Virus record (IMG/VR): IMGVR_UViG_3300037501_000166
Source of the DNA: a virus
DNA length: 64,000 bases
Reading direction: 5' to 3' (one strand)
This document shows, one piece after another, positions 20,475-46,018 of this stretch. How positions within the stretch are numbered: position 1 is the stretch's first letter; each line of letters begins with the position of its first letter. Below the pieces are notes generated by a model. It had not been told where the DNA came from. It saw nothing but the letters and a program-made list of their open reading frames with translations, and did no database searches. The translations under genes were made by a program, and so were the position numbers.

Positions 20475-22099
20475 TCCCCTTGCGCAACAAACACGTAATC
20501 AATACTGTTGATCGAAAAGTATTCATCGTCGCTTTGGGTTCCATACTTGATTTGATGAAGCCTGTAATTCTTGTTGGTCCTGAGAATGGCCGGATCAGGG
20601 GAATCGAGACCCACCGTTCCAATGGAGCTCCAAGATGCGTTCACGACTTCAGCCTCCGTATTCCCGCCCCGATGCCACACGGTAATGCTATGCAATCCGG
20701 AAGATGCGAAACCAAACCAAAGTTCAAGAAGAAGTTTCTTCGCCCTTTTATTACCGAAATCCATGATCGGTTCGATTCGATATCCGCTGAAACTTGTTCC
20801 AGACGCCGCCAATGAATTCCCACTGACATATTTGACCTGTCCGGTCGTGGCATAGACGAGGGCATCCAGACTTGAGAAGTAGTGAGACCACGTTTCGTTA
20901 TAAACGCCTGTCCAATCGGCCGTGGCGCCTCCAGCCTCGTCCATGAGATCGTTCCAGGTAAAATCAGAGTAAACCGTCCAGTTATCGATGTACGGCGAAA
21001 CCTTGTCCTCCCGCCTCCATTTGCGATCCAGCACATGGTAATAAAGGAAGAAGTTACATCTCGACTCGCCGCCCATGGGAACGGTCCAGCAGATTTCGTT
21101 TTGCTGCGGTATGTAATACCCGACAATCATTCCGTAGTAATCCGTGTCTATTTCCTTGATCCAGTTCTCGATGTCCTCCGAAATCGGTTTTCCGCCAGCG
21201 GGAAACACGGGGGAACCGTCGAACGCGCAGAACCCGAAATGCCTGTTGAACAAAAAGTGCATATTTCCAACGCTTACGATAGAGTGATGATTCGTCGCTC
21301 CCTGATGAGGTATCACGTTGATGATCTGAAACGGATAATTGGCATAGGGATAATACTCTATCCGATCAATCGAATAATCGGAGTAAAGGTAACAGACGTT
21401 TTGCCCCATGCGCTTGATTCCGGTGATGCTCCGGTCATCAGCCTTGTATGCTTGGTTGCCGGATGGAAACTCGACATCGCTGCTCAAGTCAGGAAGGGCA
21501 TCGGTCCATCTGATTTCAATATCGCCGTTGGTTTGATCAGAATATGCTCCAACGATACGCCTTTGGAATACTTCGAGATATCGAAACTTATATTGTGTAT
21601 ACCCGCTACTTCCACTTGGGTCGATGAGCTTGGTAAAAGCCGCGTCGCCATGTTTCCATTTATATGGAGTATGTTCTCCGAAGTCAGACAAGACAGCATA
21701 TGAGCCATATTGGACAATGGAATAAAGATCCGTGGCGTCGTTGGCCAATGTTGTTGCGGCAACGGAGATATCGATCGGGTTTTTAGATCCGTCGTAAGTG
21801 TAAATCTTCCCGTTGTCGCAATGAATGTGATCAATGACGCCTGCGACATTCAACTGGAAAAGAGCCTGTGTCGTCGTTGATTGCGCATTGTTGCTTGCGT
21901 TCCAAACAATATCCCCGTACGCTTTGCAGACAGTTCCACGCTTTCGCTGATAGTCCAGATTGAGTCCCCCGACATCATGCGTAATGGCCGTTCGGTCGTT
22001 GACCATCTGCACAAGTGAAGGATCATCCTGTGGGACGTTCGTCTTGCTGCCCAAGACGGGATAGACCCTGAAGACCGTAACGGCCATCAGTCCTCCCAC
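20468..22099 (-). CDS. Tail hub/nozzle (P22 gp10 / T7 gp12-like beta-propeller)
   Basis: About 540 aa, beta-rich, YLEVFQRRIVGA...IRWTD pattern; follows the adaptor gene. Confidence 0.75.
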   Translation of the reverse strand: MGGLMAVTVFRVYPVLGSKTNVPQDDPSLVQMVNDRTAITHDVGGLNLDYQRKRGTVCKAYGDIVWNASNNAQSTTTQALFQLNVAGVIDHIHCDNGKIYTYDGSKNPIDISVAATTLANDATDLYSIVQYGSYAVLSDFGEHTPYKWKHGDAAFTKLIDPSGSSGYTQYKFRYLEVFQRRIVGAYSDQTNGDIEIRWTDALPDLSSDVEFPSGNQAYKADDRSITGIKRMGQNVCYLYSDYSIDRIEYYPYANYPFQIINVIPHQGATNHHSIVSVGNMHFLFNRHFGFCAFDGSPVFPAGGKPISEDIENWIKEIDTDYYGMIVGYYIPQQNEICWTVPMGGESRCNFFLYYHVLDRKWRREDKVSPYIDNWTVYSDFTWNDLMDEAGGATADWTGVYNETWSHYFSSLDALVYATTGQVKYVSGNSLAASGTSFSGYRIEPIMDFGNKRAKKLLLELWFGFASSGLHSITVWHRGGNTEAEVVNASWSSIGTVGLDSPDPAILRTNKNYRLHQIKYGTQSDDEYFSINSIDYVFVAQGEW

Positions 22100-22845
22100 C
22101 TGTTTTGATATCCTCTAGCGTAGGCTTGCTGAAGCCAGGATTGCGCTTGGTATCCCATCCTGGCCCATTTGCGTTTACCGTCGGCGATCCGCGCCTTGGC
22201 GATCCCCTCATTCCAATCCTGTTTGTAGATCCCGGCCACTTCCCACATGTGCAAGGATCGAAAAGCCTGATACACCGCAAAATCGCAACAGCGGAACCGT
22301 TCGATTTCAGGAAGCCATGAAAAATCCGTCGCAGTCTGATCGTCCCCGGTCCTCGCGTACTCCAACTCAAGACGATATGTTCCGTCGGGAGGGGGGACAA
22401 GCCACAGCTCCCTGTTCTTGATGCAAGCGATGGTCGGTTCGCTGTTATCTTCTTCGCTTGGGTCTGGAAATTTCGTATCGAACAAGTGCGCGGGCCATAA
22501 CTCGATTTCGCGGTTGTTCGTCAGATCCTTAAGTGTGATTTCCCCCCCCCCGTAATCAGGGGGGAGGGCGTAGCGGTACGTCGCAGCGGTCGTGTCCGCG
22601 TACGCGTACCGCCTGCGCCACGTATAGTTCTTGGTTTCGGCAAGCTCCTCCTTGGCACGGATGAGCCAGCGTTGAACTTCCGCCAATGTGGGCGTTGTGG
22701 TAGTGTCCAGCGTCCCTCTTTTGATTTTCGATTCGACCTCCGCCACCATCTCGGTGACGCTGTCGAGGGTCCCCGCCGTGAACGCAACAACGCTCTGTTC
22801 TGTCCAAGCCAAATCAAGTGCCGTAGAGGAGTCTGTAATACTCAT
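22087..22845 (-). CDS. Head-tail adaptor
   Basis: TYRYALPPDY, ELWLVPPPD..Y.LELEY motifs; position. Confidence 0.75.
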   Translation of the reverse strand: MSITDSSTALDLAWTEQSVVAFTAGTLDSVTEMVAEVESKIKRGTLDTTTTPTLAEVQRWLIRAKEELAETKNYTWRRRYAYADTTAATYRYALPPDYGGGEITLKDLTNNREIELWPAHLFDTKFPDPSEEDNSEPTIACIKNRELWLVPPPDGTYRLELEYARTGDDQTATDFSWLPEIERFRCCDFAVYQAFRSLHMWEVAGIYKQDWNEGIAKARIADGKRKWARMGYQAQSWLQQAYARGYQNRWED

Positions 22846-22855: not shown

Positions 22856-23362
22856 TTATGGTGCATTGATAGCAGCAAACCACAGGACCGGGGTTGCACC
22901 ACCGTCCTTGAGCCCTGATGTCCCGGAAGCCGCAGCAGTCTTGAGAGCGACGATCAATTCCTGGGTCGGGACGATCATGGTCATGGTAGTCGTTCCAGAC
23001 CACTTGTCCCCGATTGCCCCGGAAAGGTCACAAGTGATAGTCGCGATTTCGGTTCCGGCATCGATACTGGCGAGTGGCGAAGTGCCATAAACGACATGAA
23101 TTACCGGCTCGGTGGAAGCCGCCCCGGTTTTCACGCCCTGATCATCGCTGCAAGCGAAAGCCTCGCAGGTCACGAGATACGCCGTCATCGGCAATCGGAC
23201 TCGGGCATGAATCGTACTTGCCGTCCCATCCAAGTTGATGTAAACGGAATTGGTCGCCGCCTGGCCCAGCGCCATGGGAAAGTAGGGAAAGACAATGCCT
23301 CTCCCCTCGACAGGATTGAAGAGGCGGTTGATCTTGTCATAGGTGGTGTTGGAAGCCATCAT
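22856..23362 (-). CDS. Hypothetical beta-rich structural protein (possible capsid decoration)
   Basis: Thr/Ala/Ser-rich 168 aa; between the modification cassette and the adaptor. Confidence 0.5.
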   Translation of the reverse strand: MMASNTTYDKINRLFNPVEGRGIVFPYFPMALGQAATNSVYINLDGTASTIHARVRLPMTAYLVTCEAFACSDDQGVKTGAASTEPVIHVVYGTSPLASIDAGTEIATITCDLSGAIGDKWSGTTTMTMIVPTQELIVALKTAAASGTSGLKDGGATPVLWFAAINAP

Positions 23363-24351
23363 TTATTCTCCTTTTCGTCCATAAGCATGATGTAGCCTAA
23401 GATTGCGGCCCTGAGCGGAATGATGTTCATCCAGGGCACGTACTTTGTTTTGAAAAGCAGTTGACCGTCAATTTCGACAGGGTCAGGGTATACCCCCAAA
23501 ATCCCGTCCTCCGTCGAGTTCGTGATGTTCGCCTGGGTGTATTCGGGCTTCAAGAACGTCTCAAGCCAAGTCTTGTACATCGTCAACGCCGGCGTTGTGT
23601 TTACCAACTTGCCGTGCATGTCAAGAGCCTGGTACCAGCCTCTCCAGCGGTTAATATCCTTGTCTACATGCTTTGTGCTTCTTCCGTCATGGTAATACTC
23701 GTCGTAGTAGCAGAGACTCATCCCGGTAAAAATAAAATCCCGACTTTTTAGGTACTTGTAAGCCCACAAAAACGCCGTTGAGATGACATTGCCTCCTCCA
23801 ATGTCGATTCTCTCCTTGCCGAAATCCCTATGCAAAGCCTTTTGATATTCCGCACCACCTCCCAACAGGTAATGGTATCGTTCTCCCCGCCATGTGTTAA
23901 GCGCCTTCGGGGAACAGAAAGGCGAGGCGACGAGAACCGTGTTTCTCGATTCAAAATCGAGATCAGGCGCGATATGATCCCGCGCCTCGACAGCGAAGAC
24001 ATAATTCACTTTCACCCCGTTTTCGACCAAGAACTTTGCCGTGCCGTTGCACGCTACGATAATAAATCTATCATCACACTTTTTAAGCGCAGTCCAATTC
24101 TTGCGTATTGCTGGCGAAGCCCCGACCAGAATAACCACCTTCCCCGCGCCTTCGCCGGTACACGGAAAGACTTTTATGGGTTGATTTTTTCTGTAATTCT
24201 CCATCCAGAGATTATCCATCTCCTCTCCGATCCAGGATTTGGAAACAAACTCCTGGAGCGGGAACTTGCCGCACATCTTGGGCAGCTCTGGAGACAGCTC
24301 TTCCAGATAGTCAAACTGCAAGAGCGTATTTGCTTGTGGAGAGCCGCGCAA
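23359..24351 (-). CDS. Maf/DUF115 (MptE-like) family protein 2, putative glycosyltransferase
   Basis: VILVGASPAI, IIVACNGTAKFLVENGVKVNYVFAVE, GGNVISTAFLWA, FIFTGMSLCY match the DUF115 pattern. Confidence 0.78.
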   Translation of the reverse strand: MRGSPQANTLLQFDYLEELSPELPKMCGKFPLQEFVSKSWIGEEMDNLWMENYRKNQPIKVFPCTGEGAGKVVILVGASPAIRKNWTALKKCDDRFIIVACNGTAKFLVENGVKVNYVFAVEARDHIAPDLDFESRNTVLVASPFCSPKALNTWRGERYHYLLGGGAEYQKALHRDFGKERIDIGGGNVISTAFLWAYKYLKSRDFIFTGMSLCYYDEYYHDGRSTKHVDKDINRWRGWYQALDMHGKLVNTTPALTMYKTWLETFLKPEYTQANITNSTEDGILGVYPDPVEIDGQLLFKTKYVPWMNIIPLRAAILGYIMLMDEKENK

Positions 24352-25228
24352 TCCCTACTCCTCTTGTCGAGATAAGTAATGGTTCGTCGTTTTCGTTCCT
24401 TTGATCGCAGGTCGCACACGGATAGTTTCCAAACTCTCCGATGTCGTGAGCACGCCTGAAGGCGGTTGCAATTTCCCCTTGGAGGATCTCACGGATCGTC
24501 TTTTTGTGCGTGTTGCCATAGATAACCTCCCCATTGGTCAAAAAGCAACATGGGATCAAGTTGCCATCCGCCTGAATCTGGATAGGTCCGGATGTCGGCC
24601 TTCCGCAGGTTTTCAACCTCGGATTGACTTTCCGGTAATCTTTCGCTCCTCCCCAGTTATGCGGCTTCCATACTTCCACATGGTCGATGCCTTTTTTTTT
24701 CCAATACTCAACTACTTCGCTGGGGTTTTCGTTGTTCATCGCCAGGCATGTAACATGCGTCGTTATCTGTGCGTTTTCGAACCAGTTTATCGTAACGAAA
24801 TCCGAGATGTTCCTTATCACGTCGTCCCACAAGATCTTCTTGTGTACCTTCTTGTATGTCTTTTCCGTGATGCCGTGGACTGAAAACCGGATGTTTTTGA
24901 GCCCGGCATCTATGAGCGAACACGCTCGATGATAGTCAAGCAAGCTGGCATTGGTGGTAATGTAGGTCATCATTCTTTTGGCGGTCGCGTACCGTATCTT
25001 TTGTTCCAGTTCACGGTCAAGAAGGGGTTCCCCGAACCCGAAAAGCGACAGATGATTGACGCCCATATCCTCAAGTTCATCGACGATTTTTTTGTAATGA
25101 TTCATGCGCATGGTCATCTTTCGCCTGGTCATTTTGTCCCGTGGGCAAATGACACAACGCGCATTGCAGGCAGACGTGGTCTCTACTCTCGCTTCAGGGC
25201 AAATAGCATGGCCTGTGTGATCAATCAC
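24311..25228 (-). CDS. Radical SAM enzyme with SPASM/twitch domain (BtrN-like)
   Basis: CNARCVIC (CxxxCxxC), GFGEPLL, TTNAS, HNWGG, CGRP...ADGNLIPCC...CATC. Confidence 0.92.
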   Translation of the reverse strand: MIDHTGHAICPEARVETTSACNARCVICPRDKMTRRKMTMRMNHYKKIVDELEDMGVNHLSLFGFGEPLLDRELEQKIRYATAKRMMTYITTNASLLDYHRACSLIDAGLKNIRFSVHGITEKTYKKVHKKILWDDVIRNISDFVTINWFENAQITTHVTCLAMNNENPSEVVEYWKKKGIDHVEVWKPHNWGGAKDYRKVNPRLKTCGRPTSGPIQIQADGNLIPCCFLTNGEVIYGNTHKKTIREILQGEIATAFRRAHDIGEFGNYPCATCDQRNENDEPLLISTRGVGIARLSTSKYALAV

Positions 25229-25565
25229 AGTATGATCTCACTTTAGTGACGACCGCCTGGGGAGACATGCCGTCTACGCAGAAAAGGGCATCGTAGTATT
25301 CTTTTATAACCGGCTCATAGATCATCTTGAAGATATCCTTAGTAAGCCAGTCTTCGCTTTTCCACAAAAGCACTTTGCGCCCCTTGAGGATTAGAGGATT
25401 TGTGTATCGGCCGCCCAAAACCACATGCGTGTCTGCGTCGGAAACGTGATCCAAAACCGCGATTCCATTCTCTACAAGTTCCCTCATGATATGCATCCAA
25501 TTCAAACGGTTTTGATCCCGCTTAACCCAGTACACGTTAACAGTCGGCATAGATGCACACTCCAT
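25221..25565 (-). CDS. Small alpha/beta hypothetical protein (possible glycosyltransferase half-domain)
   Basis: Overlaps both neighbours; alternating strand/helix pattern; family uncertain. Confidence 0.5.
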   Translation of the reverse strand: MECASMPTVNVYWVKRDQNRLNWMHIMRELVENGIAVLDHVSDADTHVVLGGRYTNPLILKGRKVLLWKSEDWLTKDIFKMIYEPVIKEYYDALFCVDGMSPQAVVTKVRSYCD

Positions 25566-26130
25566 CCGGGTACACCATCGAGATCAGCCCTCTATTCAGG
25601 AATATATGAGCGACCGGATTCATGGACGCGGTCACTATCTCGAAACCGTTTTCCATGAACCGGTTGATCCACCATAGGGCGTCGTGGATGTTGATGTGAG
25701 TATTGAAAGGCTTGTCGTCCCTGGTGGCGATGGTAAAATAAACCTTTTTTCCAACCCGCATTGTCTCGCGCAGGATATCATCCACCTCTTCTTCCGGAAC
25801 GTGTTCGAGCATTTCTGAGCAAAACACCAGGTCGAAGCTCTTCGATTTGAACGGAAGTTCCGATGCGCTCCCTCTGGTACATTTTCCTTTGAGACATTTG
25901 ATTTTTGGGATTCTCAAATCAATGGCGAAAACCTTGTAACCGTTTTTAAAAAACCAAACGGCTTCATAATTGTTTCCTCCACCGACGATCAGGACTTTCT
26001 TGACGATCCTTTTGATATATGGTAAGGAAGAAATCGAAGCGGCATGGACAAGACCTCTGGATACGCCAGGCCCGCCATAATCCAGACGCCCGAAAATCCC
26101 ATGCTCGCTGTAAAGTGTCTTGTCAGCCAC
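25537..26130 (-). CDS. Class I SAM-dependent methyltransferase (Methyltransf_11-like)
   Basis: VLIVGGGN, GSASELPFKSKSFDLVFCSEMLEHV motifs. Confidence 0.88.
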   Translation of the reverse strand: MADKTLYSEHGIFGRLDYGGPGVSRGLVHAASISSLPYIKRIVKKVLIVGGGNNYEAVWFFKNGYKVFAIDLRIPKIKCLKGKCTRGSASELPFKSKSFDLVFCSEMLEHVPEEEVDDILRETMRVGKKVYFTIATRDDKPFNTHINIHDALWWINRFMENGFEIVTASMNPVAHIFLNRGLISMVYPDGVCIYADC

Positions 26131-26329
26131 CTTTCTTCCTTTTGTGATCCCTCAATCCTTGTTCGATTCTGTTTGACAACATGGCAATGCAAGCATCGCA
26201 AAAGTACTTGTACATGGGATTTTCTGTTGCGATGTCCACAACGCGGAACGTGTATCCCATGCACTTAGGGTTACGTTTCGATCCCCACAAACATTGGCCG
26301 GTTTGAGGTAACGGCTCATTGGTGCTCAC
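26123..26329 (-). CDS. Small Cys-containing hypothetical protein
   Basis: Coupled starts/stops; C-x9-C and CDAC. Confidence 0.5.
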   Translation of the reverse strand: MSTNEPLPQTGQCLWGSKRNPKCMGYTFRVVDIATENPMYKYFCDACIAMLSNRIEQGLRDHKRKKGG

Positions 26330-26547
26330 GGTTCCTCCCTTACGATCTTCGGCCTATCCCTTATAATTCCAAAACTGTCGGCGAAAAATGCGCTTCGTTG
26401 CCATGATTTTTTGATCTCAGGCCCCCTCAAAATGTGCTCGGGGTTATCAACGAGGGACGGCCTGTGAACCTTGCACCAACCATCCCTGCCGGCCATCGCT
26501 CCGCAGTTTTTACACCTGTTAGGATTGCCTCGTCTCTCTCCTGCCAT
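26326..26547 (-). CDS. Small Cys-containing hypothetical protein overlapping the 3' end of Maf-like gene 1
   Basis: MAGERRGNPNRCKNC...WCKVH; stop overlaps the next start. Confidence 0.4.
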   Translation of the reverse strand: MAGERRGNPNRCKNCGAMAGRDGWCKVHRPSLVDNPEHILRGPEIKKSWQRSAFFADSFGIIRDRPKIVREEP

Positions 26548-27680
26548 AACACCCTCGCTTCCAAAAATTGTATTACGGCATCTTTGAGTTTTCGCGTATG
26601 CCATCTGTGCGGTATGACGTTATCCAACAGAAACCAGTTGGACGGCTCCATCATCGCCTCGTCGCTGTGGTCATACGCCATCATTCCGAGAATGCCAGCT
26701 TCGGAGCAGTTGTAATAATGGAAGACGTTATTTTTGGCCCACACGGCGGCATGCATTTCCACCCAATGCTTGTAAGTCCACAGGAGCCTTGATGTTCCCA
26801 TGGGCTTCATCAACAAATTCGGACGGGCGAGGTAAATCGGACTGTCCACAAATTCGAATCCCATCCATGCGAATTTGTCCTTGGCCTCATCCCGGTCGTT
26901 GTCGATATTGATCTGATATTCCCTGTCCGCGTAAAACCCTACGCGCCGTTTGTCGTAATCGGGATCGTAGGGGAATGACAGATCATTACCGACACACATG
27001 AACACGCTTGAACCAAGCTGTTTCATGGCCAAGAGCCATGCCGTGTTGATGACGTTTCCGCCCTGCGGGATGCAGACCGATTCTACGTCGTCTTTCGTCA
27101 TGTTCTTGAAGATCTTTTTGAATTCCTGCTGTGCTGGCAGGAAAAAGCAGATATGTCTTCCCTGCCGAGTCCACTCATCCAATATCTTCGGGGAGGTCTG
27201 CAACGAGGCGAGAAGGATCGAGTTGTCGCCGAGTTTGGGGATATCTACGTTCAGTTGAGTATTAACGGCTTCTCCAGCATCGACAAGGACAACGAAGTGC
27301 GGGAAAATTCCCATCCTCAAAAGAGGTTTGAACTGATGGTTCGAAGCGATGATGATAAACGGTTGATCCTTCAATCTGTATGGAAGGATGTGAGTCCTGT
27401 ATACCCAGTGAAGGATGTCCTTGTTGAGATTGAAAGAGGGTCCGGCTCCAACCGCTATGACAGCCTTGTTGAAGCCGAACCCTTTGAAATCGTGAACCAA
27501 CGCACCATGTTTCTTGTAGCGTTTTTTCAGGTTTGAACGAACGTTAGCCAACCAACGGTCTTCCATCTTCTCCGTCGTGTGGTCGTTCGTTTTGAGCATC
27601 GTTTCAAATTCCCACTTGGATATAACATGATTCAGGTGGGAATTTTCTTTCAGAAACTCGTCGTACGTCGGTTCACTCAT
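26427..27680 (-). CDS. Maf/DUF115 (MptE-like) family protein 1, putative glycosyltransferase
   Basis: VIAVGAGPSF, IIIASNHQFKPLLRMGIFPHFVVLVD, GGNVINTAWLLA, FMCVGNDLSF. Confidence 0.82.
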   Translation of the reverse strand: MSEPTYDEFLKENSHLNHVISKWEFETMLKTNDHTTEKMEDRWLANVRSNLKKRYKKHGALVHDFKGFGFNKAVIAVGAGPSFNLNKDILHWVYRTHILPYRLKDQPFIIIASNHQFKPLLRMGIFPHFVVLVDAGEAVNTQLNVDIPKLGDNSILLASLQTSPKILDEWTRQGRHICFFLPAQQEFKKIFKNMTKDDVESVCIPQGGNVINTAWLLAMKQLGSSVFMCVGNDLSFPYDPDYDKRRVGFYADREYQINIDNDRDEAKDKFAWMGFEFVDSPIYLARPNLLMKPMGTSRLLWTYKHWVEMHAAVWAKNNVFHYYNCSEAGILGMMAYDHSDEAMMEPSNWFLLDNVIPHRWHTRKLKDAVIQFLEARVLWQERDEAILTGVKTAERWPAGMVGARFTGRPSLITPSTF

Positions 27681-27689: not shown

Positions 27690-28883
27690 CTAGGAGGTCA
27701 GCGCGGTAAAGACGCCGTGCTGCCCCCACTCGAACCCGCGACCTTCCATCGAGTACTCGGAGATGAGCATGTGCTGTTCGTAGTCGCCGTTGTCGCCCAG
27801 CTTCTTGAGGAGAAGCTTCCTCCCCTTTTTGGCCCTGAGCTTCAGCTTATCCGTGTCGAGAACGAATACCAGGGTCGCCGGGAACTTCGGCATCATGAGC
27901 AGTTCCAACTCCTTACCCACGTCGGTCATGTAACGCGGGATGAACAGCCCGCCGATCTTGTTGTCGGGGGCCATGCGGACCCGATCCCGCGACCAATCCG
28001 TGAACTTCCTCATGAGGGTGTAGGGACCAACCACGACCTTCGGACTGCCTCCGTTTTCCACGATGTTCGCCACGAGGTTATTGAACGCGGATTCGGTGAA
28101 TGTCGTTGTGGTGTTGTCGTACGGAGAAGTCCCCAACAGCCCCGAGTTGATGATACATCCGAACGCGCCGTTCATAAGGCCGATTGCGGTCGTGCTGCTT
28201 CTGGACTGTCCGTAGGACAAAAGAACAGAACGTTCCCTCTCGAACTGCATCTCCTGAAGTCGCTGTTTGATTTCGTGCGCGAGGTTGTTCGGAACCGCGT
28301 ACATATCGGTTGCCAGCATGCTTCCGGTGATTGAGACTTCCTTCATGTGGATGGCGAATTTGTTGGACATGATCGCCCGCTTGCGCGAGGTATCGCCCAT
28401 GGGATCGGAACCCTCAGGGGCGAAGTGCCCAACGATGTACAGCTTGGCCGATGCCGCCACGCCGCCGGAGACCGTCACCAACTCCGAAAGGCCGAGGGAA
28501 CCGGCCCCGGTGTTGATGGTCGTGACCACGAAGTAAGCGTATTCCGTGGACCCGGCGGTCTTGGCATAAAGCAAGGTTCCGACCTGGATCGCCTTGGCGA
28601 CTTCAGCGGTGGCAAGCCCGGTCCCCGACGTGGTGATGAGGATGGCCGAGGTATCGGACGCGATTGCTGCGGAGGTTTGCACGTAGCCGAAGCCACGATG
28701 TTCGGTCAACCATTCGATGATTGTCCCGCCCGAGTCCGGCCCCCAAGAAATCCGATTCAGAAGCGGGGTTTCCTCATGAGCCCAAACGTCCAGAAGGTTC
28801 GACACGTCCCGGATATTCGTGCTCGCCGTGAAGTCGGTAGTGCCGAAAGAATCAGGGTACACCCTAGCCGAAAGTGTTGCCAT
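27690..28883 (-). CDS. Major capsid protein (SU10/DUF5309-like HK97 fold) with Ser/Thr-rich insertion
   Basis: IRDVS...EETPLL...IEW...EGSD...KEVSITGS...MQFERE...LGDNGDYEQHMLISEYSME; follows scaffold and portal. Confidence 0.88.
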   Translation of the reverse strand: MATLSARVYPDSFGTTDFTASTNIRDVSNLLDVWAHEETPLLNRISWGPDSGGTIIEWLTEHRGFGYVQTSAAIASDTSAILITTSGTGLATAEVAKAIQVGTLLYAKTAGSTEYAYFVVTTINTGAGSLGLSELVTVSGGVAASAKLYIVGHFAPEGSDPMGDTSRKRAIMSNKFAIHMKEVSITGSMLATDMYAVPNNLAHEIKQRLQEMQFERERSVLLSYGQSRSSTTAIGLMNGAFGCIINSGLLGTSPYDNTTTTFTESAFNNLVANIVENGGSPKVVVGPYTLMRKFTDWSRDRVRMAPDNKIGGLFIPRYMTDVGKELELLMMPKFPATLVFVLDTDKLKLRAKKGRKLLLKKLGDNGDYEQHMLISEYSMEGRGFEWGQHGVFTALTS

Positions 28884-28895: not shown

Positions 28896-29675
28896 TTACC
28901 GCTTTTGCGAAGGGGTGAGCATTTGCTGAACCAGCATTTCCAATGCCTGATCCGCGCTCAATGCCCCCTCTGCGCGGTTCTTCAAGATGTCTCGCTGAGC
29001 TTTTTGTTCAGCGGATGTTTGCGGGATTGCCGGAACGCTTCTCGTTCCCCCGCTTTCCGTATGCTGTGGGGAGGTTTGGCCCGGGATGCCGTACTTCTTC
29101 AAGATCTCCGAGGTTCCCATGAGCGCCTTATCGTACTTCTCAAGGAGCTTTTCACTGAAAAGATCTCGAATAGACAGTTCTCCGCTTTGAATACGCTGCG
29201 CGGTGTTGTAGTCCTGAAGCGACGCCTCGAATTCAGCCGCCACGCTCTTGTAGCGCCTGTTGCCGCGTACCCAAGAAAGCTCCCTGGCCAATGCTTCTTG
29301 CTGTGCTCTGGTCTGCTCCCCGATTTTGTTGACCACTTTCCACACGCTTTGCTCAACCAGAGATGACAGATCCACCGACTGCCCGCCTTCGGGCGCTTCG
29401 TAAGGACCCGGCGATACCGGTCTCGATTGCTGAGCGGATATCATACTTTTTAACTCGGCAATCTGCCTGTTGGCTTCACCCAGCATATTCGCAAGCCTCC
29501 CCGCCTGTTGCGAGGCAACCGCCATCCCTCGGATGTCCTCGGGAGTCTTTACCTGCAACGTTTCGAGTTCGCTTAGAATCGCTTGGATGTCCTCTCCGCC
29601 GCCCTGGCTTGCAGATTCCTGACTCTGCTGTTTCGGATCCTGGGGCGTTTCCTTGATCGTCGGGCTCTCTGGCAT
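28896..29675 (-). CDS. Putative scaffolding protein
   Basis: Helical/coiled-coil, Gln/Glu-rich, immediately upstream of the capsid gene. Confidence 0.7.
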   Translation of the reverse strand: MPESPTIKETPQDPKQQSQESASQGGGEDIQAILSELETLQVKTPEDIRGMAVASQQAGRLANMLGEANRQIAELKSMISAQQSRPVSPGPYEAPEGGQSVDLSSLVEQSVWKVVNKIGEQTRAQQEALARELSWVRGNRRYKSVAAEFEASLQDYNTAQRIQSGELSIRDLFSEKLLEKYDKALMGTSEILKKYGIPGQTSPQHTESGGTRSVPAIPQTSAEQKAQRDILKNRAEGALSADQALEMLVQQMLTPSQKR

Positions 29676-29726: not shown

Positions 29727-30071
29727 TTATGCCCCTGCCGCACGGCGGGGCTTGGTTCTCTCGGCGATATCCTCGTTATGCTTTTTGACCTTCATCATCG
29801 TTTCGACAACAGTCATGGGGTTCATCATCCAGACCAAGAATTCATCCATCCAAGAAAGCGTCTTGATGAGAGCCCTTTGTTCGTCTTGCGCCAGTTTCTG
29901 GAACTCCCGGCTTATGGGGGTTTCCCTCATTTGGACTCTCAAAAACATGATGAATTGCTGTAGGGCCTTCCATCCCTTTTCGTCCTTCAGCCTCAGTATC
30001 CAATCGAGATGCTGCTGGGATTCAGGATGCTGTATCCATTGCAGCATGACCTGACGAAGGGCTGTTTTCAT
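29727..30071 (-). CDS. Small helical protein downstream of the portal
   Basis: ATGA coupling to the portal; conserved position in podoviruses. Confidence 0.65.
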   Translation of the reverse strand: MKTALRQVMLQWIQHPESQQHLDWILRLKDEKGWKALQQFIMFLRVQMRETPISREFQKLAQDEQRALIKTLSWMDEFLVWMMNPMTVVETMMKVKKHNEDIAERTKPRRAAGA

Positions 30072-31999
30072 CCCTTCACCAGCGTCTTTGTTACGTCCGC
30101 TATAAGACCCCTTTCCGCCTGCCTGTCGGCCATCTTATCTTGAAGCAAGGCGTTCAGTTGCATCATGTTGATCTGTTGGTTCAACTGAGCCTGTTGCTGC
30201 ATCTGCATTTCATAAGCAAGTTGCTCTGGCGTTTTAAGGAACTTGTCCGCTTCATGGAAATCCATAAGTTCAAGCATCGCCTTGGCCAACTCGAAGTGTT
30301 GAAGATACGGTGTTTGCGCCCAGACCTGTGACCACTGAAGAAGTTGCTGGATCCTAAATTGTTTTCCAAGCGCAGGTTCAAGCGCCGTATATCTGACCGT
30401 GAAGTCATAATCCCAGTGAATATCGCCTGGGAACAGCGGGACAAACTGCTGATCAGGCGACACGTCGGAAAGACGCGCCTCGAACCCAGCCGGCAAATGC
30501 CATGTGTTGAGCAACATCATATATTTGAGAAGAGGTTGAAATCCTTGGTGATCCATGGTCATCATCAAAAGGCGGGTTCTGGCTTCGCCCATTGATTGGA
30601 GACTGTATATCGTCCCGACGTGCTCCTGTCTCGGCGGAACCTGTCCCAGATTATACGGATAAAGCCCGAGCATATCCGAAATGGCGTTCTCGAAAAAATC
30701 TTCCTGTTCTCTGAATATCCCCGTCTGCGAGACGTCGCCGGTCACAAGCGGCTGTATATCCCCCATATCTTCGACCGGAACGATACCAAACGGTTTCCAG
30801 ATAAGGGCCTGGGGATCAATGTCCGCGTCTTGACGGACTTTAAGCATCTGGTTGACCATCATCACTGCGTTCTGGAAGCGGGTATTGCCAAGGACATTGA
30901 CTTGCTCTTGGATAGACTTCCCCAGCCTTATCAATCCAATATCCCAGAAGAGCTCCGGATGCATATAACAGCCGATGGCGAAATATGGCGTATAACCGTA
31001 CTTGTTCTTTTCGAGTTTCAGGATGGTTTTGTAATTTCCGATGTGGACGATGGCTTTGCTTTCTTTCCCCTTGATCTTGTATCCCGCGTCGATTTCGTAA
31101 GGAGAGTCGTCTTCGGGGAAGATATATCTTCCATAACCTTCGATCACATCCACTTCAGGGGCGACACGTTCGGAGTTGAGCTCGGCTTCCGTCAGATATC
31201 CTTCGAGGCTGAGAGATTTCGCGATGGCTTCAAATGAGTCGTTGCCTGATCCGACGCCGCCACCGGGCCGCATGGTGCCTGAAAATCCAACCTTGTCAAC
31301 GTTTCGATAGACGCCCTTTTCCTCCAGCTCCTTGAGATAGTTGACCGATCTACGGTACACATCGAACACAAAGGGCATATCCTGGATGTTCTTAAAGTGC
31401 GGATGCGGAACAAACGTTTTGTTCGGCCTGACTTCACAGTACGGACCATCGTAGGTGACTTGAGGTTCCTCGACAAGAAGATCCTGGTAGCTGATGTCAA
31501 CAATCTGACCGTTCTGAACGACAGGGTATGGGATGAGGATGCGGCGCGGGGAAATACGTTCCTCTTTCTTCCAGTAGCACTTGGCGATCCCCTTGCCCCA
31601 GCTCATGGCGTTGAGCATCCACTGGAGATGAAACATGTATGCTCCACCCACCGCGTCGCAATCGTTCAAAGTTTCCATCTGGAAATTGAGAAGAGCTGAA
31701 ATCCTGGGAGCCCTGTCAACGTCGGCTCTCTTGCGCGGACGGACGGCGACGAAGTTATGAGACGCCGGTTGATACATCTGATCCATGAAGCGCGACAGGA
31801 TGGTCATGATTCTTGGCAGGAGCTTGTTGAAAGACATGTTATAAACGAGTGGGTATTTGTTCTGGCTGATATGCCCGAGGTAGTATTCCATGTCCTCGTC
31901 GTACGACAGTCTCGTATCCTGATTGAGATCCCATTGCATCTTGTAGGCTTCAAGGAAATGCCTTGCCGCGTCAAGTTCCCACTCGGTTTGCTCTGCCAT
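30068..31999 (-). CDS. Portal protein (P22-like)
   Basis: 643 aa; N-terminal helix, FNKLLPRI, WGKGIAKCYW, YDGPY, Gln-rich C-terminal barrel; position. Confidence 0.88.
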   Translation of the reverse strand: MAEQTEWELDAARHFLEAYKMQWDLNQDTRLSYDEDMEYYLGHISQNKYPLVYNMSFNKLLPRIMTILSRFMDQMYQPASHNFVAVRPRKRADVDRAPRISALLNFQMETLNDCDAVGGAYMFHLQWMLNAMSWGKGIAKCYWKKEERISPRRILIPYPVVQNGQIVDISYQDLLVEEPQVTYDGPYCEVRPNKTFVPHPHFKNIQDMPFVFDVYRRSVNYLKELEEKGVYRNVDKVGFSGTMRPGGGVGSGNDSFEAIAKSLSLEGYLTEAELNSERVAPEVDVIEGYGRYIFPEDDSPYEIDAGYKIKGKESKAIVHIGNYKTILKLEKNKYGYTPYFAIGCYMHPELFWDIGLIRLGKSIQEQVNVLGNTRFQNAVMMVNQMLKVRQDADIDPQALIWKPFGIVPVEDMGDIQPLVTGDVSQTGIFREQEDFFENAISDMLGLYPYNLGQVPPRQEHVGTIYSLQSMGEARTRLLMMTMDHQGFQPLLKYMMLLNTWHLPAGFEARLSDVSPDQQFVPLFPGDIHWDYDFTVRYTALEPALGKQFRIQQLLQWSQVWAQTPYLQHFELAKAMLELMDFHEADKFLKTPEQLAYEMQMQQQAQLNQQINMMQLNALLQDKMADRQAERGLIADVTKTLVKG

Positions 32000-32014: not shown

Positions 32015-32368
32015 TCAAACTTCCGGCTCTAAAACATCGCCCCCCAATGCAATGCGCCTGATGTCTTCCGGGTTGTATTTCACGTACGCGATTTCCTCAA
32101 CGATTGCAGGAACTTCATAGGTTTGAAATTCGTGTAAGACGCCCGGCTCGACGTCAAACATCTGTTTTTGGGTCAGCACAGTCGTATGGCCCTTGTCGGT
32201 CTTGACCCCAAGTTTTCCGCTGATGACTGTAAACCTGTTCCAACAGGTTGTATGGGAATGATAGGAGCATCGTTGATTGGGGACAAGGAACAGCAGGGTA
32301 ACGATTCCACCGTCCCACGCAAAGGTAAGCATGCGTTCGCCCCATGTGCCGTGGACCTGGCTGAACAT
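32015..32368 (-). CDS. Cupin-domain protein
   Basis: CSYHSH...NRFTVISG and VEPGVLHEF cupin motifs; ATG overlaps the upstream TAA. Confidence 0.75.
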   Translation of the reverse strand: MFSQVHGTWGERMLTFAWDGGIVTLLFLVPNQRCSYHSHTTCWNRFTVISGKLGVKTDKGHTTVLTQKQMFDVEPGVLHEFQTYEVPAIVEEIAYVKYNPEDIRRIALGGDVLEPEV

Positions 32369-32535
32369 TACTTTCCTCTCCGATGTTTCCGTCTGGTAGG
32401 TTTCCAACCGTGTTCGATAGCATTCAAAAGGCGTTCTTGTGCTTCCGCCTTTTTCTTTGTGGTGGCCTTGCTTTTCACACCACCCGGCGTCGAGACCTGA
32501 TAGCGCTTACCTTTCCTTCTTATCTTGACCGGCAT
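32368..32535 (-). CDS. Small basic protein
   Basis: MPVKIRRKGKRYQVSTPGGVKSKATTKKKAEAQERLLNAIEHG; AGGAG RBS. Confidence 0.65.
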   Translation of the reverse strand: MPVKIRRKGKRYQVSTPGGVKSKATTKKKAEAQERLLNAIEHGWKPTRRKHRRGK

Positions 32536-37405: not shown

Positions 37406-38206
37406 TCATCCCTCTTGGGCCTCGTTGGGCGGTTCCGCCTGCGACGGATCGACTTGAGGGCTGTGTGCCCTGTCCGGTCGCAGACGAGGCCGATAGCTCT
37501 TGCCATTGATGATGACGTGATGGGCTCTGTTAATCAAGCGATCCAGGACCCCCTCGGCCAACACCGGGTTGGGGAACAAGGGATACCAGTGCTGGGGCGA
37601 TCGGTTGGAGGCCACCACCACAGAGCCCATTCGGCTTCGATCATCGATGAGGTCATAGATGTCCTCTGCTTGTTGGGGGGTGAACTCCTTCATTGCGAAG
37701 TCATCGAGAAGTAGCAAGTCGGGCTTCAGGTATCGACGGAAACGGTTCTCCCAGGTTCCATCGGCGTGACCTCCGCCCAGATCGGCCAGCAGACGCGAAG
37801 TCTTGAGATAGAGCACGGAGTGACCCAGCCGGCAGGCCTGATGACCGATGGCCTGAAGCAGGTGGGTTTTGCCTACCCCGACGGGTCCTATGAACAGCAC
37901 CCACTGTTTGCGCTCGATGAACTGGCAGTTGGCCAGGTCCCGGATCTGCCTGGCCGGCAGTTTGGGGTTGGAGCCGAAGTCGAAGCCCTCCAAGGTCTTG
38001 ATCTCTTCGAAACGGGCTCGGGCCACCCTCTGGGTGAGCCTCTGATTGGCGCGACGTTGCAATTCGTCCTCCATGAGGATCTCCAAGAACTCGACGTAGC
38101 CCAGATGCTCCTGCTGGGCCTGAGAGAGCCTCATCTCCAGGCTCTGGAGCATGCCCGAGAGCTTCAGCCCTTTGAGCTTTGCGATCAGATGATGTTCGCT
38201 GGCCAT
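37406..38206 (-). CDS. istB: IS21 helper ATPase IstB
   Basis: LKGLKLSGM N-terminus, Walker A GPVGVGKT, Walker B LLLLDD, ILDRL-like VLDRL. Confidence 0.95.
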   Translation of the reverse strand: MASEHHLIAKLKGLKLSGMLQSLEMRLSQAQQEHLGYVEFLEILMEDELQRRANQRLTQRVARARFEEIKTLEGFDFGSNPKLPARQIRDLANCQFIERKQWVLFIGPVGVGKTHLLQAIGHQACRLGHSVLYLKTSRLLADLGGGHADGTWENRFRRYLKPDLLLLDDFAMKEFTPQQAEDIYDLIDDRSRMGSVVVASNRSPQHWYPLFPNPVLAEGVLDRLINRAHHVIINGKSYRPRLRPDRAHSPQVDPSQAEPPNEAQEG

Positions 38207-39402
38207 GGGATACCTCCTTCAGGATCGGGCCTTGGATGCCAGGGGTTCGAGGAGTTCCGCAGGGCCCCGAAGATAGGCCCCTGTCTCGACCCGATGCGTC
38301 TGCAAAGCGACCAACTTGTCGCGGCCGCTTTCCAGGCAGTGTATCCCCCTCCTCCTGCAAAGAAGTAGCAATCCCTTCCCACCTTCGCCTGGCCCCAGGT
38401 GACCACCTCAAAGGGCTCAGAGGGAAGCGGCCTCAAGGCTTGCCGCTCCAGTCCTTGGAAGACTTCCAGTGGACGCTGACGGGTGGTGCCGTGAATCCTC
38501 ATCCCAGCCACCTTCACACACCACTGATAGGCCTGCCGGTTGATCTCATCCAGAGAGCCAAAACTCCTTCCCGCCCAGAGGCTCCCACGAATATAGGGCA
38601 TCATCCTTTCCACCCGTGGTTTGTCCTTGGGTTTGCCCACCCGCGCAGGATCGATGAGCACCCCGTAGTGCGAGGCAAGTTCGGCATATCCCCTGTTGAA
38701 CTTGGGGTCATAGAGGTCCGGCTTCAGTACACCGCTGGTCAAATTGTCCAGCACCACCCGACGGGGCGTTCCACCCCAGAACTCAAAGGTCCCTATGTGA
38801 CACTCCAGCCACGTCGCCTGATCCATCCGCTCCACCACCCGCACGAACATGTGACGACTGTGGGAAAGCACCATTACAAAGGCCCACAGTCTCCTCCTTC
38901 TGCCCACCACGGGGTCCTCCCACAGCCCCAGATACCCATAGTCCACCTGGGCCTCCTCACCCGCCGGCGGATCCTCCCGCCTCACCGTCAGACACCGGCG
39001 CTCCAACACCTCAGGAAGGCATTTGCGCACGTAGCGATAAAAGCTGCTGTACGACGCTCCAAGACCATGCTCATCTCTGAGTCTCTGCCAACTCACTGCA
39101 ACGGTGGTCTTCTCCAGTGCCTCCCTGATCACATCGTGGTGCTCCAGAAGCTCGCGAAACACCACCGATCCCACCGTTGGGTCCACAAGCTCAGGAGCCG
39201 CTTGTTCCAAAAAGACCCTCCACCCCTCAGGGGGTGGCAACCCTCCAACCTCGTAGCCATGGGACCTCGCAATCGCCACGTACTTGCGGATCGTCGGCCG
39301 GGACACCCCCAGGCACCGCGCTACCGCTCTAATCCCACGCCCCGACTGCCAATGATCGAGAATCTCCCCTATGTCGCGCACCGTCACCTTCCTCCTTGCC
39401 AT
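38185..39402 (-). pseudogene. istA: IS21 transposase IstA with internal deletion/frameshift near 38338
   Basis: HTH, QVDYG, VLDNL, KPRVE DDE motifs; after GGGGYT the plausible C-terminus (CLESGRDKLVALQ...KARS*) is in another frame. Confidence 0.85.
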
Positions 39403-40876: not shown

Positions 40877-42515
40877 TTTTTCCTCTCCTTTGCCATGATG
40901 ATACTGGTAAAAAATTACTTCCCTTGATGAGCTTGTAATCCAGTTCGAGCCCGACGGGGTTTTCATGCCGAAAATTTTTGGCCTTCACGATCTTGATCGT
41001 GTTGGGTTCAGGTGGTGTGCCTTTGCTCAAGGAGAGATAAAGCCTCGGCTTCTGCAAGCCCTTTTCCCCGCCTTCGCCCCAATCCCTGGAGCTGGGCTTT
41101 TGCAAAGCCACTACCGCGATGCCTTTGCCCAGCTTGCGGTAGATATCCGCCAATTTCCCAGCGATTTGGTAATAATCCCCATAGAGTTCGAGGAAATCGA
41201 TAATGTTAAGATCATCCGGGGCGATCACATCGTGGAAATCGCGATCACGTTCCCAGAAATGGATCTTGGACCAAGTATCGGGCATGATGCTGTCGAAAAG
41301 GGCCATGCGCATGCGCAGTTCTTGGTCGCCCATTTCGGAAGAGAAGTAATGAACGGGCATTTGGTTGCAGTTCATCACGGCCAGGTTAAGCAGGAAGGTT
41401 GTCTTGCCAGCGTCGAATTCCCCTGCGATTACGATGATATTTTTTGGGTAGATTTTCACTAGTTTTTCGATATGGAAAGGTAGGCGGACGGGGAATTCTT
41501 CAACCGCCGCGCTTTGCCAATCTATCTTTTCCATATCCGTGTCAACGACGCGAAAGTATCTTGGTTTCGATGCTACCCTTTCGATGAGCCCTTCCTCGAC
41601 CAAACGTTGCAAACTTTTTTTCCTCGATTCTTTGTCCCCTTTTGTCCCGAAACCCAGTTCTTTGTCCACTTCTGTCCCCGTAAAGTCCCCTTTTGTCCCG
41701 TTTAGCCAAGCGCGGATTTCGGACATGACGCTGTTGGTGCGCCGTTCACCGCGCTGAAAAGCACTTTGAACCTTGGTCCAGGCTTCTTGCGGTGGGAATG
41801 GCGGATCGCATTTTGAGGCAATGAAATCAATTACTTGCCTTATCTCGTCCGATGCCATTCCACCTTTTTGGAGGGTCCAAGCGATATGAAAAAGGGTTTC
41901 ATCGCGCCCCGGCCTCGTGAAAGCCAGGGTGTCCCCGCATGTCCCCGTTTGTCCCGTTTTGTCCCTTGGTATAGCTTTTGCAAATATATATTCTTTTAAC
42001 GTACTAGGTACTTCTTTTGGGTTTAAATCTTTAAGACTTAAACCCTTCTTAAAGCTGTACTTACCTCTACACGTACTGGGAGGACCCATGCTGGGTGGGG
42101 CGATGATATAGCCCCCGTCGTTGCGAGCATCGATCCCCTTGATGCCGTTTATGTTTGAGCCGTGCGGTATGTCGGGATCATAGAGAAACCAAAAATGATC
42201 GCCGTTTTGGGGCGTAACCACGGTTGGTGTTTCGAAAGTATCCGGAATGCGGTCTTCAATGGCCTCCCGCGTTCCGTTTTCCATATTCCGGTAATCGAAA
42301 TCAACTACCGTAAGGTTATTTATCTTGCCGGTGATGATGCCGATTCCGGCATCCGGCCATTTTGTCCACCACGACCGGATGTCCGACTCGGGGGGGAGGG
42401 CGTTCTGGAAGGTTTTCCAAGCGGACAAAAGGGGTTTTTTGTCGGCTTGCGACCGGACGGGAATGAGGGAAAATCCTTTCCCCCTGTACCAAAGCGCCCA
42501 GTCTAACATGGACAT
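40863..42515 (-). CDS. Bifunctional primase-polymerase fused to a RecA/DnaB-type helicase domain
   Basis: GIGIITG...VVDFD, TPQNGDHFWF, IDARNDGGYIIAPPS; PriCT-like RDETLF; Walker A GEFDAGKT; GGAGG RBS before ATG 42515. Confidence 0.88.
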   Translation of the reverse strand: MSMLDWALWYRGKGFSLIPVRSQADKKPLLSAWKTFQNALPPESDIRSWWTKWPDAGIGIITGKINNLTVVDFDYRNMENGTREAIEDRIPDTFETPTVVTPQNGDHFWFLYDPDIPHGSNINGIKGIDARNDGGYIIAPPSMGPPSTCRGKYSFKKGLSLKDLNPKEVPSTLKEYIFAKAIPRDKTGQTGTCGDTLAFTRPGRDETLFHIAWTLQKGGMASDEIRQVIDFIASKCDPPFPPQEAWTKVQSAFQRGERRTNSVMSEIRAWLNGTKGDFTGTEVDKELGFGTKGDKESRKKSLQRLVEEGLIERVASKPRYFRVVDTDMEKIDWQSAAVEEFPVRLPFHIEKLVKIYPKNIIVIAGEFDAGKTTFLLNLAVMNCNQMPVHYFSSEMGDQELRMRMALFDSIMPDTWSKIHFWERDRDFHDVIAPDDLNIIDFLELYGDYYQIAGKLADIYRKLGKGIAVVALQKPSSRDWGEGGEKGLQKPRLYLSLSKGTPPEPNTIKIVKAKNFRHENPVGLELDYKLIKGSNFLPVSSWQRRGKNGTN

Positions 42516-42541
42516 AGACACCCCTCCGTAGAAGTGCAGAG

Positions 42542-42869
42542 AACGCACTGAGGGCCGAGTTTGGCGCCCCCCAGAGCGTTCCCTGGGCACTGGAGATGCG
42601 ATCGGACCATGGCCCGCAGTATACAGACAGTGACTGTGAGGCGTTTTGCTGCCGCTGGAGGATCGAGCACACCCTGGCCCCTGTGGGGCGTCCCACGGGC
42701 AACGCGATGGCTGAACGCTTTATCCAGACGTTGAAAGTGGAGCTGATGTGGACTCGGGACTGGGAGACGATTGACGATCTTCGCGAAGCGATCACTGTGT
42801 GGCTGGACGAATACAACCACCGGCGGCCTCATCAAGCACTCGGCTGGAAGCCCCGGCTGCGAGCGCAGG
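42542..42869 (+). pseudogene. IS3-family transposase fragment (copy 2)
   Basis: Identical to 35-362; here visibly located between the cro gene and the primase RBS. Confidence 0.85.
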
Positions 42870-42879
42870 GCAGAGTCTT

Positions 42880-43062
42880 CTAATAAATATCCCCGAAGGC
42901 TATCTCCCCGCCGGATCGCTCGACGATCCGCCGCGCCGAGGCCGGCCTCGGCTTATGCCGCCCGGTCTCCCATTGCCATAGGGAGACCCGATGGACGCCA
43001 AGCCGCCGACCGGCTTGGGCAAGAGAAAGCCCACTTTTTTTTCGCCATTGTTTGAGTGTCAT
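42880..43062 (-). CDS. Cro/CI-like HTH regulator (copy 2)
   Basis: Identical to 373-555. Confidence 0.85.
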   Translation of the reverse strand: MTLKQWRKKSGLSLAQAGRRLGVHRVSLWQWETGRHKPRPASARRIVERSGGEIAFGDIY

Positions 43063-43369
43063 GCGGAAATGAATACTAGTTTTGATTCCTTCTGTCAAGT
43101 CTTTTTTTCTGCCCTGCGAATTGGCCTTGGAAAACGCTTAGTTAGAAAAAAATCTTCACTGCATAAAAAAATACTTGACAAACGAATAAGCCTGTGCGAT
43201 AACATCACCATCACGGTAGGAGGTTAAAAAATGAAGATAAGAAAGATGAAATTTGGCCCCCCCTGCCTATATCCTGTTTCACCAAGTGGGTTGGTGAATC
43301 AGGACCTGGGCAGGGAGCCCAGGATATTCCAAGGCCCCCCCTGTTGTGGGGGGGGGCAAAGGAGAGGCT

Positions 43370-44164
43370 ATGGAGACCAGAACCAGAACCGAGAGCAGAA
43401 GGCTGCTGGAGTCGGCCGGGTACCCCCCGGCCGCGGTGGAAATTGTATTGAAATGGACCGCTCCCCTGCGCCACAAGGAGCGGGTGGAGACGGTCCACGA
43501 GGTACTGCGGGAGTACCTCGACACCGCCCCCCCAGAGGAGCGGGCCGGGTTGGCCCGCATCCTCCTATCCCTGGAGTTGGCGGGGATAGGGGGGAGGATG
43601 GACGTAGAGGGGCTGGCCACAACCCGGCTGGCCCCCTTTGCCACGCTTGGCAAGGGCCGTCGGAACGCGACCGACGGCCCTGCGTGGAACGCAGCGCTGC
43701 GGGATGCCCTCCGCGAATCCGGGGGGCGCCCTGCGGTGGAATGGAACAGGGAGGCCCGCCGTCTCACAGCGGCGGGAATCCCCCTGGTCCCGGGTCGAAT
43801 CCCCAGCCGCTGGCTCCTGGCGGAGCTGCGGCGGGGGGTTCTGTACCTGGCATGGAGAACGGGCGACATGGCCGGCCAACCCCCAAGGCCGGCTTTAGAC
43901 TGGGACAGTTATACAAGCTGGTCCAGTCTGGTGGGCGGCGGCGCCGCCCACATTAGGGCGGTGGCGCAGGACTTGGCCGCCCAGGAGTGGAGGACTGGGG
44001 CAGGCCTCTACCACGCCCAGCTCTATCGGGCGTGGCAAGAGGCTGAGGAGGGGTCCGACGAGGAGGCCGCAGCCTCCCGCGCCCTGGCCGAGGCCGGGGC
44101 GGGGTGGCCGGTCTTCCCCTCCCGCTGGGAGGAGGAGGAATGGTGGCGGGAGGTCGCGCCATGA
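43370..44164 (+). CDS. Hypothetical early protein (copy 2)
   Basis: Identical to 863-1657. Confidence 0.6.
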   Translation: METRTRTESRRLLESAGYPPAAVEIVLKWTAPLRHKERVETVHEVLREYLDTAPPEERAGLARILLSLELAGIGGRMDVEGLATTRLAPFATLGKGRRNATDGPAWNAALRDALRESGGRPAVEWNREARRLTAAGIPLVPGRIPSRWLLAELRRGVLYLAWRTGDMAGQPPRPALDWDSYTSWSSLVGGGAAHIRAVAQDLAAQEWRTGAGLYHAQLYRAWQEAEEGSDEEAAASRALAEAGAGWPVFPSRWEEEEWWREVAP

Positions 44165-46015: not shown

Positions 46016-46018
46016 GCC

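Follow-up and report, generated by a model that had tools for sequence, protein, structure and literature searches.

Introduction

To our knowledge, glycosylated phage particles have been documented only for a few mycobacteriophages, which use conventional glycosyltransferases; virion glycosylation of this Che8/Corndog/Myrna type was reportedly described by Freeman et al. in 2023. Likewise, we know of Maf enzymes only as modifiers of flagellin. Here, we describe a cassette of seven genes located directly behind the major capsid gene of an SU10-like podophage, in a viral DNA of 64,000 nucleotides (IMG/VR record IMGVR_UViG_3300037501_000166), the whole of which is referred to as the window. The cassette encodes two Maf-type DUF115 proteins (Maf1 and Maf2), two small cysteine proteins (CysA and CysB), a methyltransferase with a 114-residue partner protein and a BtrN-like radical S-adenosylmethionine (SAM) enzyme, and suggests the recruitment of an acidic-sugar system of flagellin type to the phage head.

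The mycobacteriophage systems resemble this cassette in that phage glycosylation genes lie beside structural genes and a coating of capsid or tail has been proposed. However, they employ conventional glycosyltransferases and neutral sugars and belong to actinobacteriophages, whereas in the SU10-like podophages of freshwater and sediment metagenomes the cassette pairs Maf-type enzymes of the sialyltransferase fold with a radical SAM enzyme, and a domain scan of the window's cassette revealed no conventional GT-A or GT-B glycosyltransferase. The Maf flagellin enzymes of Magnetospirillum magneticum (structure 5mu5), Clostridium botulinum and Geobacillus are encoded in a flagellar island and act on flagellin. 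In contrast, the phage genes lie between capsid and adaptor, with no flagellin or flagellar genes among the neighbours of the cassette, and a capsid or decoration protein would take the place of flagellin as acceptor. The phage proteins are also compact, with about 330-417 amino acids and no TPR domain detected, compared to roughly 440-1170 amino acids in the bacterial Maf/DUF115 matches of the AlphaFold database. Besides, the Gly-Gly-Ser motif of Maf seems to be Gly-Gly-Asn in the phage proteins, judged by motif spacing and not by a verified alignment.

For the radical SAM enzyme, the counterpart is BtrN, the 2-deoxy-scyllo-inosamine dehydrogenase of butirosin biosynthesis (PDB 4m7s and 4m7t), with which it shares the CxxxCxxC core and a single-cluster Twitch domain whose four auxiliary cysteines align. 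The differences are that only the conserved motifs can be aligned, that the phage locus has no aminoglycoside pathway and that the presumed substrate is an ulosonic acid linked to protein or to cytidine monophosphate (CMP). In the tripartite GlfM-Maf-2 system of flagellin glycosylation, recognition of the acceptor depends on a small protein whose gene neighbours that for Maf (bioRxiv 10.1101/2023.12.03.569772). GlfM may offer an analogy to CysA and CysB, and no more than that: a four-helix bundle is predicted for GlfM, while CysA and CysB resemble zinc ribbons. In the literature on phage Maf/DUF115 proteins, capsid glycosylation and radical SAM enzymes, we found no description of such a cassette.

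A cassette joined to the capsid gene

The seven genes span positions 23359-27680, all on the minus strand, and maf1 (26427-27680) starts 9 nucleotides past the stop codon of the gene for the major capsid protein (27690-28883, minus strand; 397 amino acids; PF17236 SU10_MCP, E-value 1e-39; phrog_1328, 3e-31). The remaining junctions are overlaps or gaps of a few bases, among them GTGA between cysA and cysB and ATGA between maf2 and the next gene, p168. A reading of the window made from the sequence alone (the sequence-only reading) had described this tightly packed run without a visible terminator, and genes, coordinates and packing are all borne out. Terminator-like sites on both strands are found at chance level (12 compared to 10.7 expected from shuffled sequence), and on the coding strand there is no intergenic terminator from capsid to adaptor, since both minus-strand sites fall within open reading frames (ORFs). 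The functional cassette reaches as far as p168 (22856-23362).

Sampling via Maf1, the radical SAM gene and Maf2 yielded about 21 distinct SU10-like metagenomic loci. All related loci examined show the cassette joined to the capsid gene, which favours the sequence-only reading, where a survey of related phages had been proposed as a check. The capsid gene lies directly upstream of maf1 in all of them, and hidden Markov models place CysA after Maf1 and CysB right after CysA wherever a locus covers the site, so that the order capsid-Maf1-CysA-CysB is invariant. The head-to-tail adaptor (window 22087-22845, minus strand; PF24175 SU10_adaptor, 8e-12) forms the conserved downstream border, and all adaptor-reaching loci except L008 and L065 contain the radical SAM gene. 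The slot between CysB and Maf2 or the adaptor varies: it can hold the methyltransferase with the 114-residue protein, Sulfotransfer_3 and Methyltransf_23/24 proteins, hexapeptide and GNAT acyltransferases or GT2 glycosyltransferases (the latter in L011 and L063). Such a conserved core, combined with a tailoring slot that is hypervariable, is typical of glycan islands. In metagenomes, we found 376 homologues of Maf1 (mostly about 410 amino acids, 40-50% identity) and >1000 of the radical SAM enzyme. Among cultured phages, the capsid protein gave one weak match and Maf2 none, and the capsid protein as a single query sequence had no match in viral contigs.

Maf1 and Maf2

Both DUF115 proteins match PF01973 (MAF_flag10/DUF115) above the curated cut-off, Maf1 (417 amino acids) with 2.6e-18 and Maf2 (330 amino acids; 23359-24351, minus strand, TTG start) with 3.1e-22. 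The AlphaFold model of Maf1, calculated from 30 homologues, reaches a pLDDT of 86.7 with disorder limited to the last 33 residues. A Foldseek search with this model returned the Magnetospirillum Maf glycosyltransferase 5mu5 as top match (2e-7) and the archaeal kinase MptE as second (9e-6), which supports the assignment of the sequence-only reading to Maf rather than to MptE. Neighbours in the AlphaFold database are bacterial clusters annotated as DUF115 or "motility associated factor glycosyltransferase", Treponema proteins and WaaZ, a transferase of 3-deoxy-D-manno-oct-2-ulosonic acid (Kdo). Furthermore, Maf1 and Maf2 both carry an extra C-terminal subdomain, aligned to Maf residues up to 520, which is missing from MptE; neither is a single domain of ~230 amino acids with MptE as nearest neighbour.

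The family profile of Maf2 matches 5mu5 with 2.4e-9 and MptE with 8e-5, and Maf2 also matches the NCBIfam PseD domain model with 2.4e-9, which is far under the curated cut-off of that model. Based on an hhalign comparison (99.9%, E 7e-37, 265 profile columns), Maf1 and Maf2 are clear paralogues. Residue E324 of Maf is reported to be essential for catalysis, as quoted in bioRxiv 10.1101/2020.06.03.131540, and according to our alignment its counterpart is retained as E122 in Maf2 and as the nearly invariant D134 in Maf1. The two phage proteins therefore share the fold of Maf and retain at least one of its catalytic residues.

A pterin or cofactor pathway, considered on account of MptE and of weak MoaA-like matches of the radical SAM enzyme, was rejected in view of the fold ranking and the glycan-type neighbours. 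A domain scan of the neighbouring ORFs found no folate or methanopterin genes near the cassette.

Radical SAM enzyme and methyltransferase

The radical SAM enzyme (24311-25228, minus strand, GTG start; 305 amino acids) matches Radical_SAM with 3e-19 and SPASM with 5e-9. Throughout 24 family members, the CxxxCxxC motif at C21/C25/C28 is nearly invariant, and the C-terminal part contains only five conserved cysteines (C208, C227, C228, C271 and C274) instead of the seven of a SPASM motif. The family profile matches BtrN with 1e-21 in two stretches which correspond to the core and the auxiliary-cluster domain; positions 204-279 align with BtrN 168-244 and all four ligand cysteines of BtrN are matched, with C208, C227/C228, C271 and C274 invariant in the family. 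A search with the single sequence gave no match to the Twitch domain of BtrN. Further solved matches of the profile are BlsE (5e-12), MoaA (2e-11), DesII (2e-6) and PqqE, with YydG among the weaker ones, and the nearest solved relatives act on sugar-like small molecules. Therefore, the enzyme is BtrN-like, with one auxiliary-cluster (Twitch) domain, and is no full SPASM maturase; the Pfam SPASM match reflects the shared half of the motif. With respect to the sequence-only reading, "radical SAM" and "BtrN-type" stand, the latter for both domains, and "SPASM" has to be replaced by a single-cluster Twitch domain. Domain-library scans of the cassette found no RRE or PqqD-like peptide-recognition domain.

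The class I SAM-dependent methyltransferase (25537-26130, minus strand; 197 amino acids; Methyltransf_11, 1.2e-12) and the 114-residue protein (25221-25565, minus strand; no family match) occur in only some relatives and belong to the variable tailoring slot. A methyltransferase of this type invariably precedes the 114-residue protein, whose homologues (26-38% identity) directly follow the methyltransferase gene in L001, L005, L010, L012, L029 and L063-L065. The Atlas model of the 114-residue protein is of too low confidence to support the alpha/beta character given in the sequence-only reading, and Atlas searches with this protein and with CysA gave no usable lead.

CysA and CysB

The sequence-only reading had listed two small cysteine proteins, both of which exist and are conserved, although the first one has to be shortened. 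The cysA reading frame is open up to 26604 (92 amino acids as first listed). The most likely start is the 20th codon at 26547, where relatives start and where the gene overlaps the disordered and unconserved tail of Maf1. This start, which gives a protein of ~73 amino acids (26326-26547, minus strand), overlaps the Maf1 tail by 121 nucleotides. The tail itself (last ~40 codons, 26427-26547) is unconserved, disordered in the model and overlapped out of frame by the conserved beginning of CysA, an arrangement which is kept in relatives.

CysA is zinc-ribbon-like with a CxxC...CxxH/C motif; in the alignment of relatives C12, C15 and C25 as well as a C-terminal FGIIRDKFP-like motif are conserved. 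CysB (26123-26329, minus strand, GTG start; 68 amino acids) is also zinc-ribbon-like, with four conserved cysteines and a basic tail. Both proteins have four conserved metal-ligand-type residues apiece. A complex prediction for Maf1 and CysA gave a median score of 0.01, which weighs neither for nor against binding. CysA and CysB remain beside Maf1 in L008 and L065, which both lack the radical SAM gene, and this argues against a role as its peptide substrates.

The Maf2-p168 module

Maf2 is confined to a minority of the loci and has 56 homologue clusters in metagenomes. In all seven loci with downstream sequence, it is directly followed by a homologue of p168 (minus strand), a protein with a jelly roll that putatively decorates or cements the head, and p168 is absent from every Maf2-less locus examined. 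The p168 family is small, with 14 representatives among 1.8 billion proteins. The strict pairing suggests that the two are enzyme and acceptor, with p168 as the probable acceptor of Maf2 or at least a candidate partner. Since the backbones bearing the two genes are diverse (capsid identity to the window 38-53%), Maf2 and p168 seem to move together as one mobile module. With 19% and 18%, p168 and the capsid protein have the two highest contents of serine plus threonine in the operon.

In some relatives, Maf2 is replaced before the adaptor by proteins of 303-326 amino acids from an unnamed family, here called A5, with the pattern GxGxxxxAP ... WGxN ... YGxN (L001, 11751-12662; L005, 13731-14711; L008, 11201-12136; L014, 12447-13403). 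The A5 proteins are homologous to the 248-residue protein that follows the radical SAM enzyme in L042 (9885-10631), an unrelated podophage (hhalign 98%), and the family, with this member 250-326 amino acids long, has no match in Pfam, PDB or the Atlas. A5 as a diverged DUF115 family was rejected at an hhalign probability of only 0.3%; it is a candidate for a further transferase.

Related genes in other phage lineages

In a second group of podophages (L020, L021), DUF115 genes have capsid and decoration genes as neighbours, and in a siphophage-like group (L022-L026) they lie between connector and tail-tube genes. Within the latter, genes for NeuB nonulosonate synthases (1e-76) precede, by a few kb, a DUF115 gene of 400-440 amino acids in the structural region of two contigs (L024, 2863-6567; L025, 901-1995), which ties phage DUF115 proteins to nonulosonate chemistry. 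L024 additionally codes for a radical SAM enzyme of the B12-binding kind, a methyltransferase and a TIM-barrel protein resembling xylose isomerase.

BtrN-like radical SAM homologues (about 40% identity) are found a few genes downstream of Phage_capsid_3 in L042 (8920-9888) and of an HK97-type Phage_capsid in L047 (6578-7525), and neither locus has a DUF115 gene. The gene in L047 adjoins an FkbM-type methyltransferase gene and the one in L042 an A5 homologue. Further members of the radical SAM family are present at L049-L053.

The surrounding window

The cassette sits within a typical podophage head operon with the order portal, a 114-residue protein (distinct from the one in the cassette), scaffold-like protein, capsid, cassette, p168, adaptor and a 543-residue protein. 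The portal gene (30068-31999) and the scaffold-like gene (28896-29675, just before the capsid gene) are also on the minus strand. Pfam assigns the SU10 type to capsid and adaptor in the window and to the portal in relatives. The portal of L001 (2353-5250; 965 amino acids) has a LAGLIDADG match, suggesting an intein or a homing-endonuclease insertion. A small Cupin_2 protein is kept near the portal across the clade (window 32015-32407, minus strand; L001, 5259-5612; L003, 4934-5296; L028, 64-468) and might belong to the sugar system, as some cupins are sugar isomerases or epimerases.

Elsewhere, the phage replication region contains an IS21-type pair (37406-39402, minus strand) of an IstB-like ATPase (1e-61) and a transposase with an rve integrase core. 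A direct repeat of 5.3 kb (1-5301 and 42508-47808, 99.96% identity), which includes a YqaJ-type recombinase gene, is followed by a diverged patch (5747-6349 and 48188-48790, 93.5%). This shared block is where two different phage genomes, or variants, meet in the window. The sole sequencing run containing window DNA is a freshwater metagenome, the probable source, and no RNA dataset is listed with it.

Discussion

The identities of the enzymes and their linkage to the capsid gene are solid, and from these we infer the acceptor, the donor, the chemistry of the radical SAM enzyme and the biological role (shielding or mimicry). We consider it moderately probable, at somewhat better than an even chance, that head proteins are glycosylated with a host CMP-ulosonic acid and that the sugar is subsequently tailored by methylation and the radical SAM enzyme. 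The cassette would then represent an island for O-glycosylation of virion proteins in the late head operon of an SU10-like podophage, co-transcribed with the capsid gene. Maf1, with its sialyltransferase fold, would transfer the ulosonic acid of the host (Kdo, or pseudaminic or legionaminic acid where these are made) to serine or threonine residues of the capsid or a decoration protein, with CysA and CysB as companions, probably as accessory or specificity factors. The methyltransferase and its 114-residue partner would methylate the sugar, and the radical SAM enzyme would abstract a hydrogen atom from it, for which oxidation of a hydroxyl group to a ketone is the simplest outcome. Maf2, which moves as a module with p168, would most likely glycosylate p168 or add a second sugar. 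Beside the major capsid protein, decoration-type proteins encoded downstream rank among the likeliest acceptors, with p168 as that of Maf2. The sequence-only reading had already proposed decoration of the capsid with nonulosonates and their tailoring: the enzyme families, the capsid linkage and the likeness to BtrN hold up, and the head acceptor, the nonulosonate donor and the oxidation keep the rank of proposals.

As to the donor, bioRxiv 10.1101/2020.06.03.131540 reports that Maf enzymes can use CMP-Kdo as well as CMP-N-acetylneuraminic acid (CMP-Neu5Ac). CMP-Kdo is therefore a strong candidate and at least as plausible as a nonulosonate if the host is Gram-negative. As no NeuB was found in five records of the SU10-like clade or among the large ORFs of the window, the donor would come from the host, and probably is a host CMP-sugar, either Kdo or a nonulosonate.

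Several points weigh against head glycosylation with a host ulosonic acid. A position in the head operon does not prove a head-protein target. The core fold of DUF115 is common to MptE and SteA, which are no glycosyltransferases, and at the level of sequence alone the Maf1 profile matches MptE (0.011) and Maf (1.3) only marginally. At the likely second catalytic motif (D415 of Maf), Maf1 has GND and Maf2 has GMS, in a region which the alignments with 5mu5 do not reach. Two loci do without the radical SAM gene, and distant copies (about 30% identity) occur in jumbo phage contigs of 230-390 kb with no obvious link to head genes. Neither the large ORFs of the window nor the records of five relatives, one of them with terminal repeats, contain a NeuB-type synthase. 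Finally, matches in genome collections are contigs of metagenome-assembled genomes with discordant labels (two Desulfobacteraceae, Solincola, Chloroflexota and an archaeon).

Alternatively, the radical SAM enzyme could modify a head protein directly, by cross-linking, epimerisation or side-chain oxidation, independent of any sugar and with a separate role for the Maf proteins. Its homologues with about 40% identity lie downstream of three unrelated capsid families (SU10_MCP, Phage_capsid_3 and HK97-type), in L042 and L047 even without DUF115, and many SPASM/Twitch enzymes, such as the more weakly matching YydG and PqqE, modify peptides. However, the by far best solved relatives, with BtrN at 1e-21, act on sugar-like small molecules, the scans found no domain for recognition of ribosomally synthesized and post-translationally modified peptides (RiPPs), and the neighbours are an FkbM-type methyltransferase in L047 and an A5 homologue in L042, which leaves direct modification unlikely.

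The target could also be located outside the virion, as host envelope glycans or flagellin that are modified for superinfection exclusion or host manipulation. Flagellin is the only acceptor known for Maf enzymes, and phage-encoded glycan modification of host surfaces is established. Such conversion genes, however, usually lie near the lysogeny module, whereas the cassette genes are enclosed by capsid and adaptor, overlap at their junctions and have no terminator among them, their position is kept in about 21 loci and in unrelated lineages, and Maf2 is locked to a jelly-roll protein of structural type; we regard a target outside the virion as quite improbable.

Very improbable, finally, is a RiPP-like product with CysA and CysB as peptide substrates of the radical SAM enzyme and the DUF115 proteins as MptE-like kinases or nucleotide-using tailoring enzymes: small cysteine-rich ORFs near a radical SAM gene with a SPASM-family match and the contact of the Maf1 profile with MptE at 0.011 would fit, but both small proteins persist without that gene in L008 and L065, their cysteines form conserved zinc-ribbon pairs with no variable core, structure groups Maf1 with Maf, down to the C-terminal subdomain missing from MptE, and the GT2 and sulfotransferase neighbours point to a glycan.

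For the clade as a whole, glycosylation of heads would mean that a large group of uncultured podophages coats its heads with bacterial-type acidic sugars (Kdo or nonulosonates) drawn from the CMP-sugar pool of the host, using Maf-type enzymes with a non-flagellin acceptor, an acceptor module for each enzyme (as p168 for Maf2), zinc-ribbon accessories and radical SAM tailoring. We hold this wider view tentatively, at a little less than an even chance. The cassette genes are common in metagenomes, as the homologue counts indicate, and Maf2-p168 offers a simple two-gene system for testing the idea. If true, the cassette would provide the first case of a phage capsid glycosylated with acidic sugars and the first Maf substrate other than flagellin, the BtrN-like radical SAM family would gain a new substrate class, and compact Maf enzymes with new acceptor specificities would become available for glyco-engineering. 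Above all, it would give a new view of phage surfaces with regard to charge, mimicry of host-like sugars, resistance to proteases and grazing, and immune recognition.

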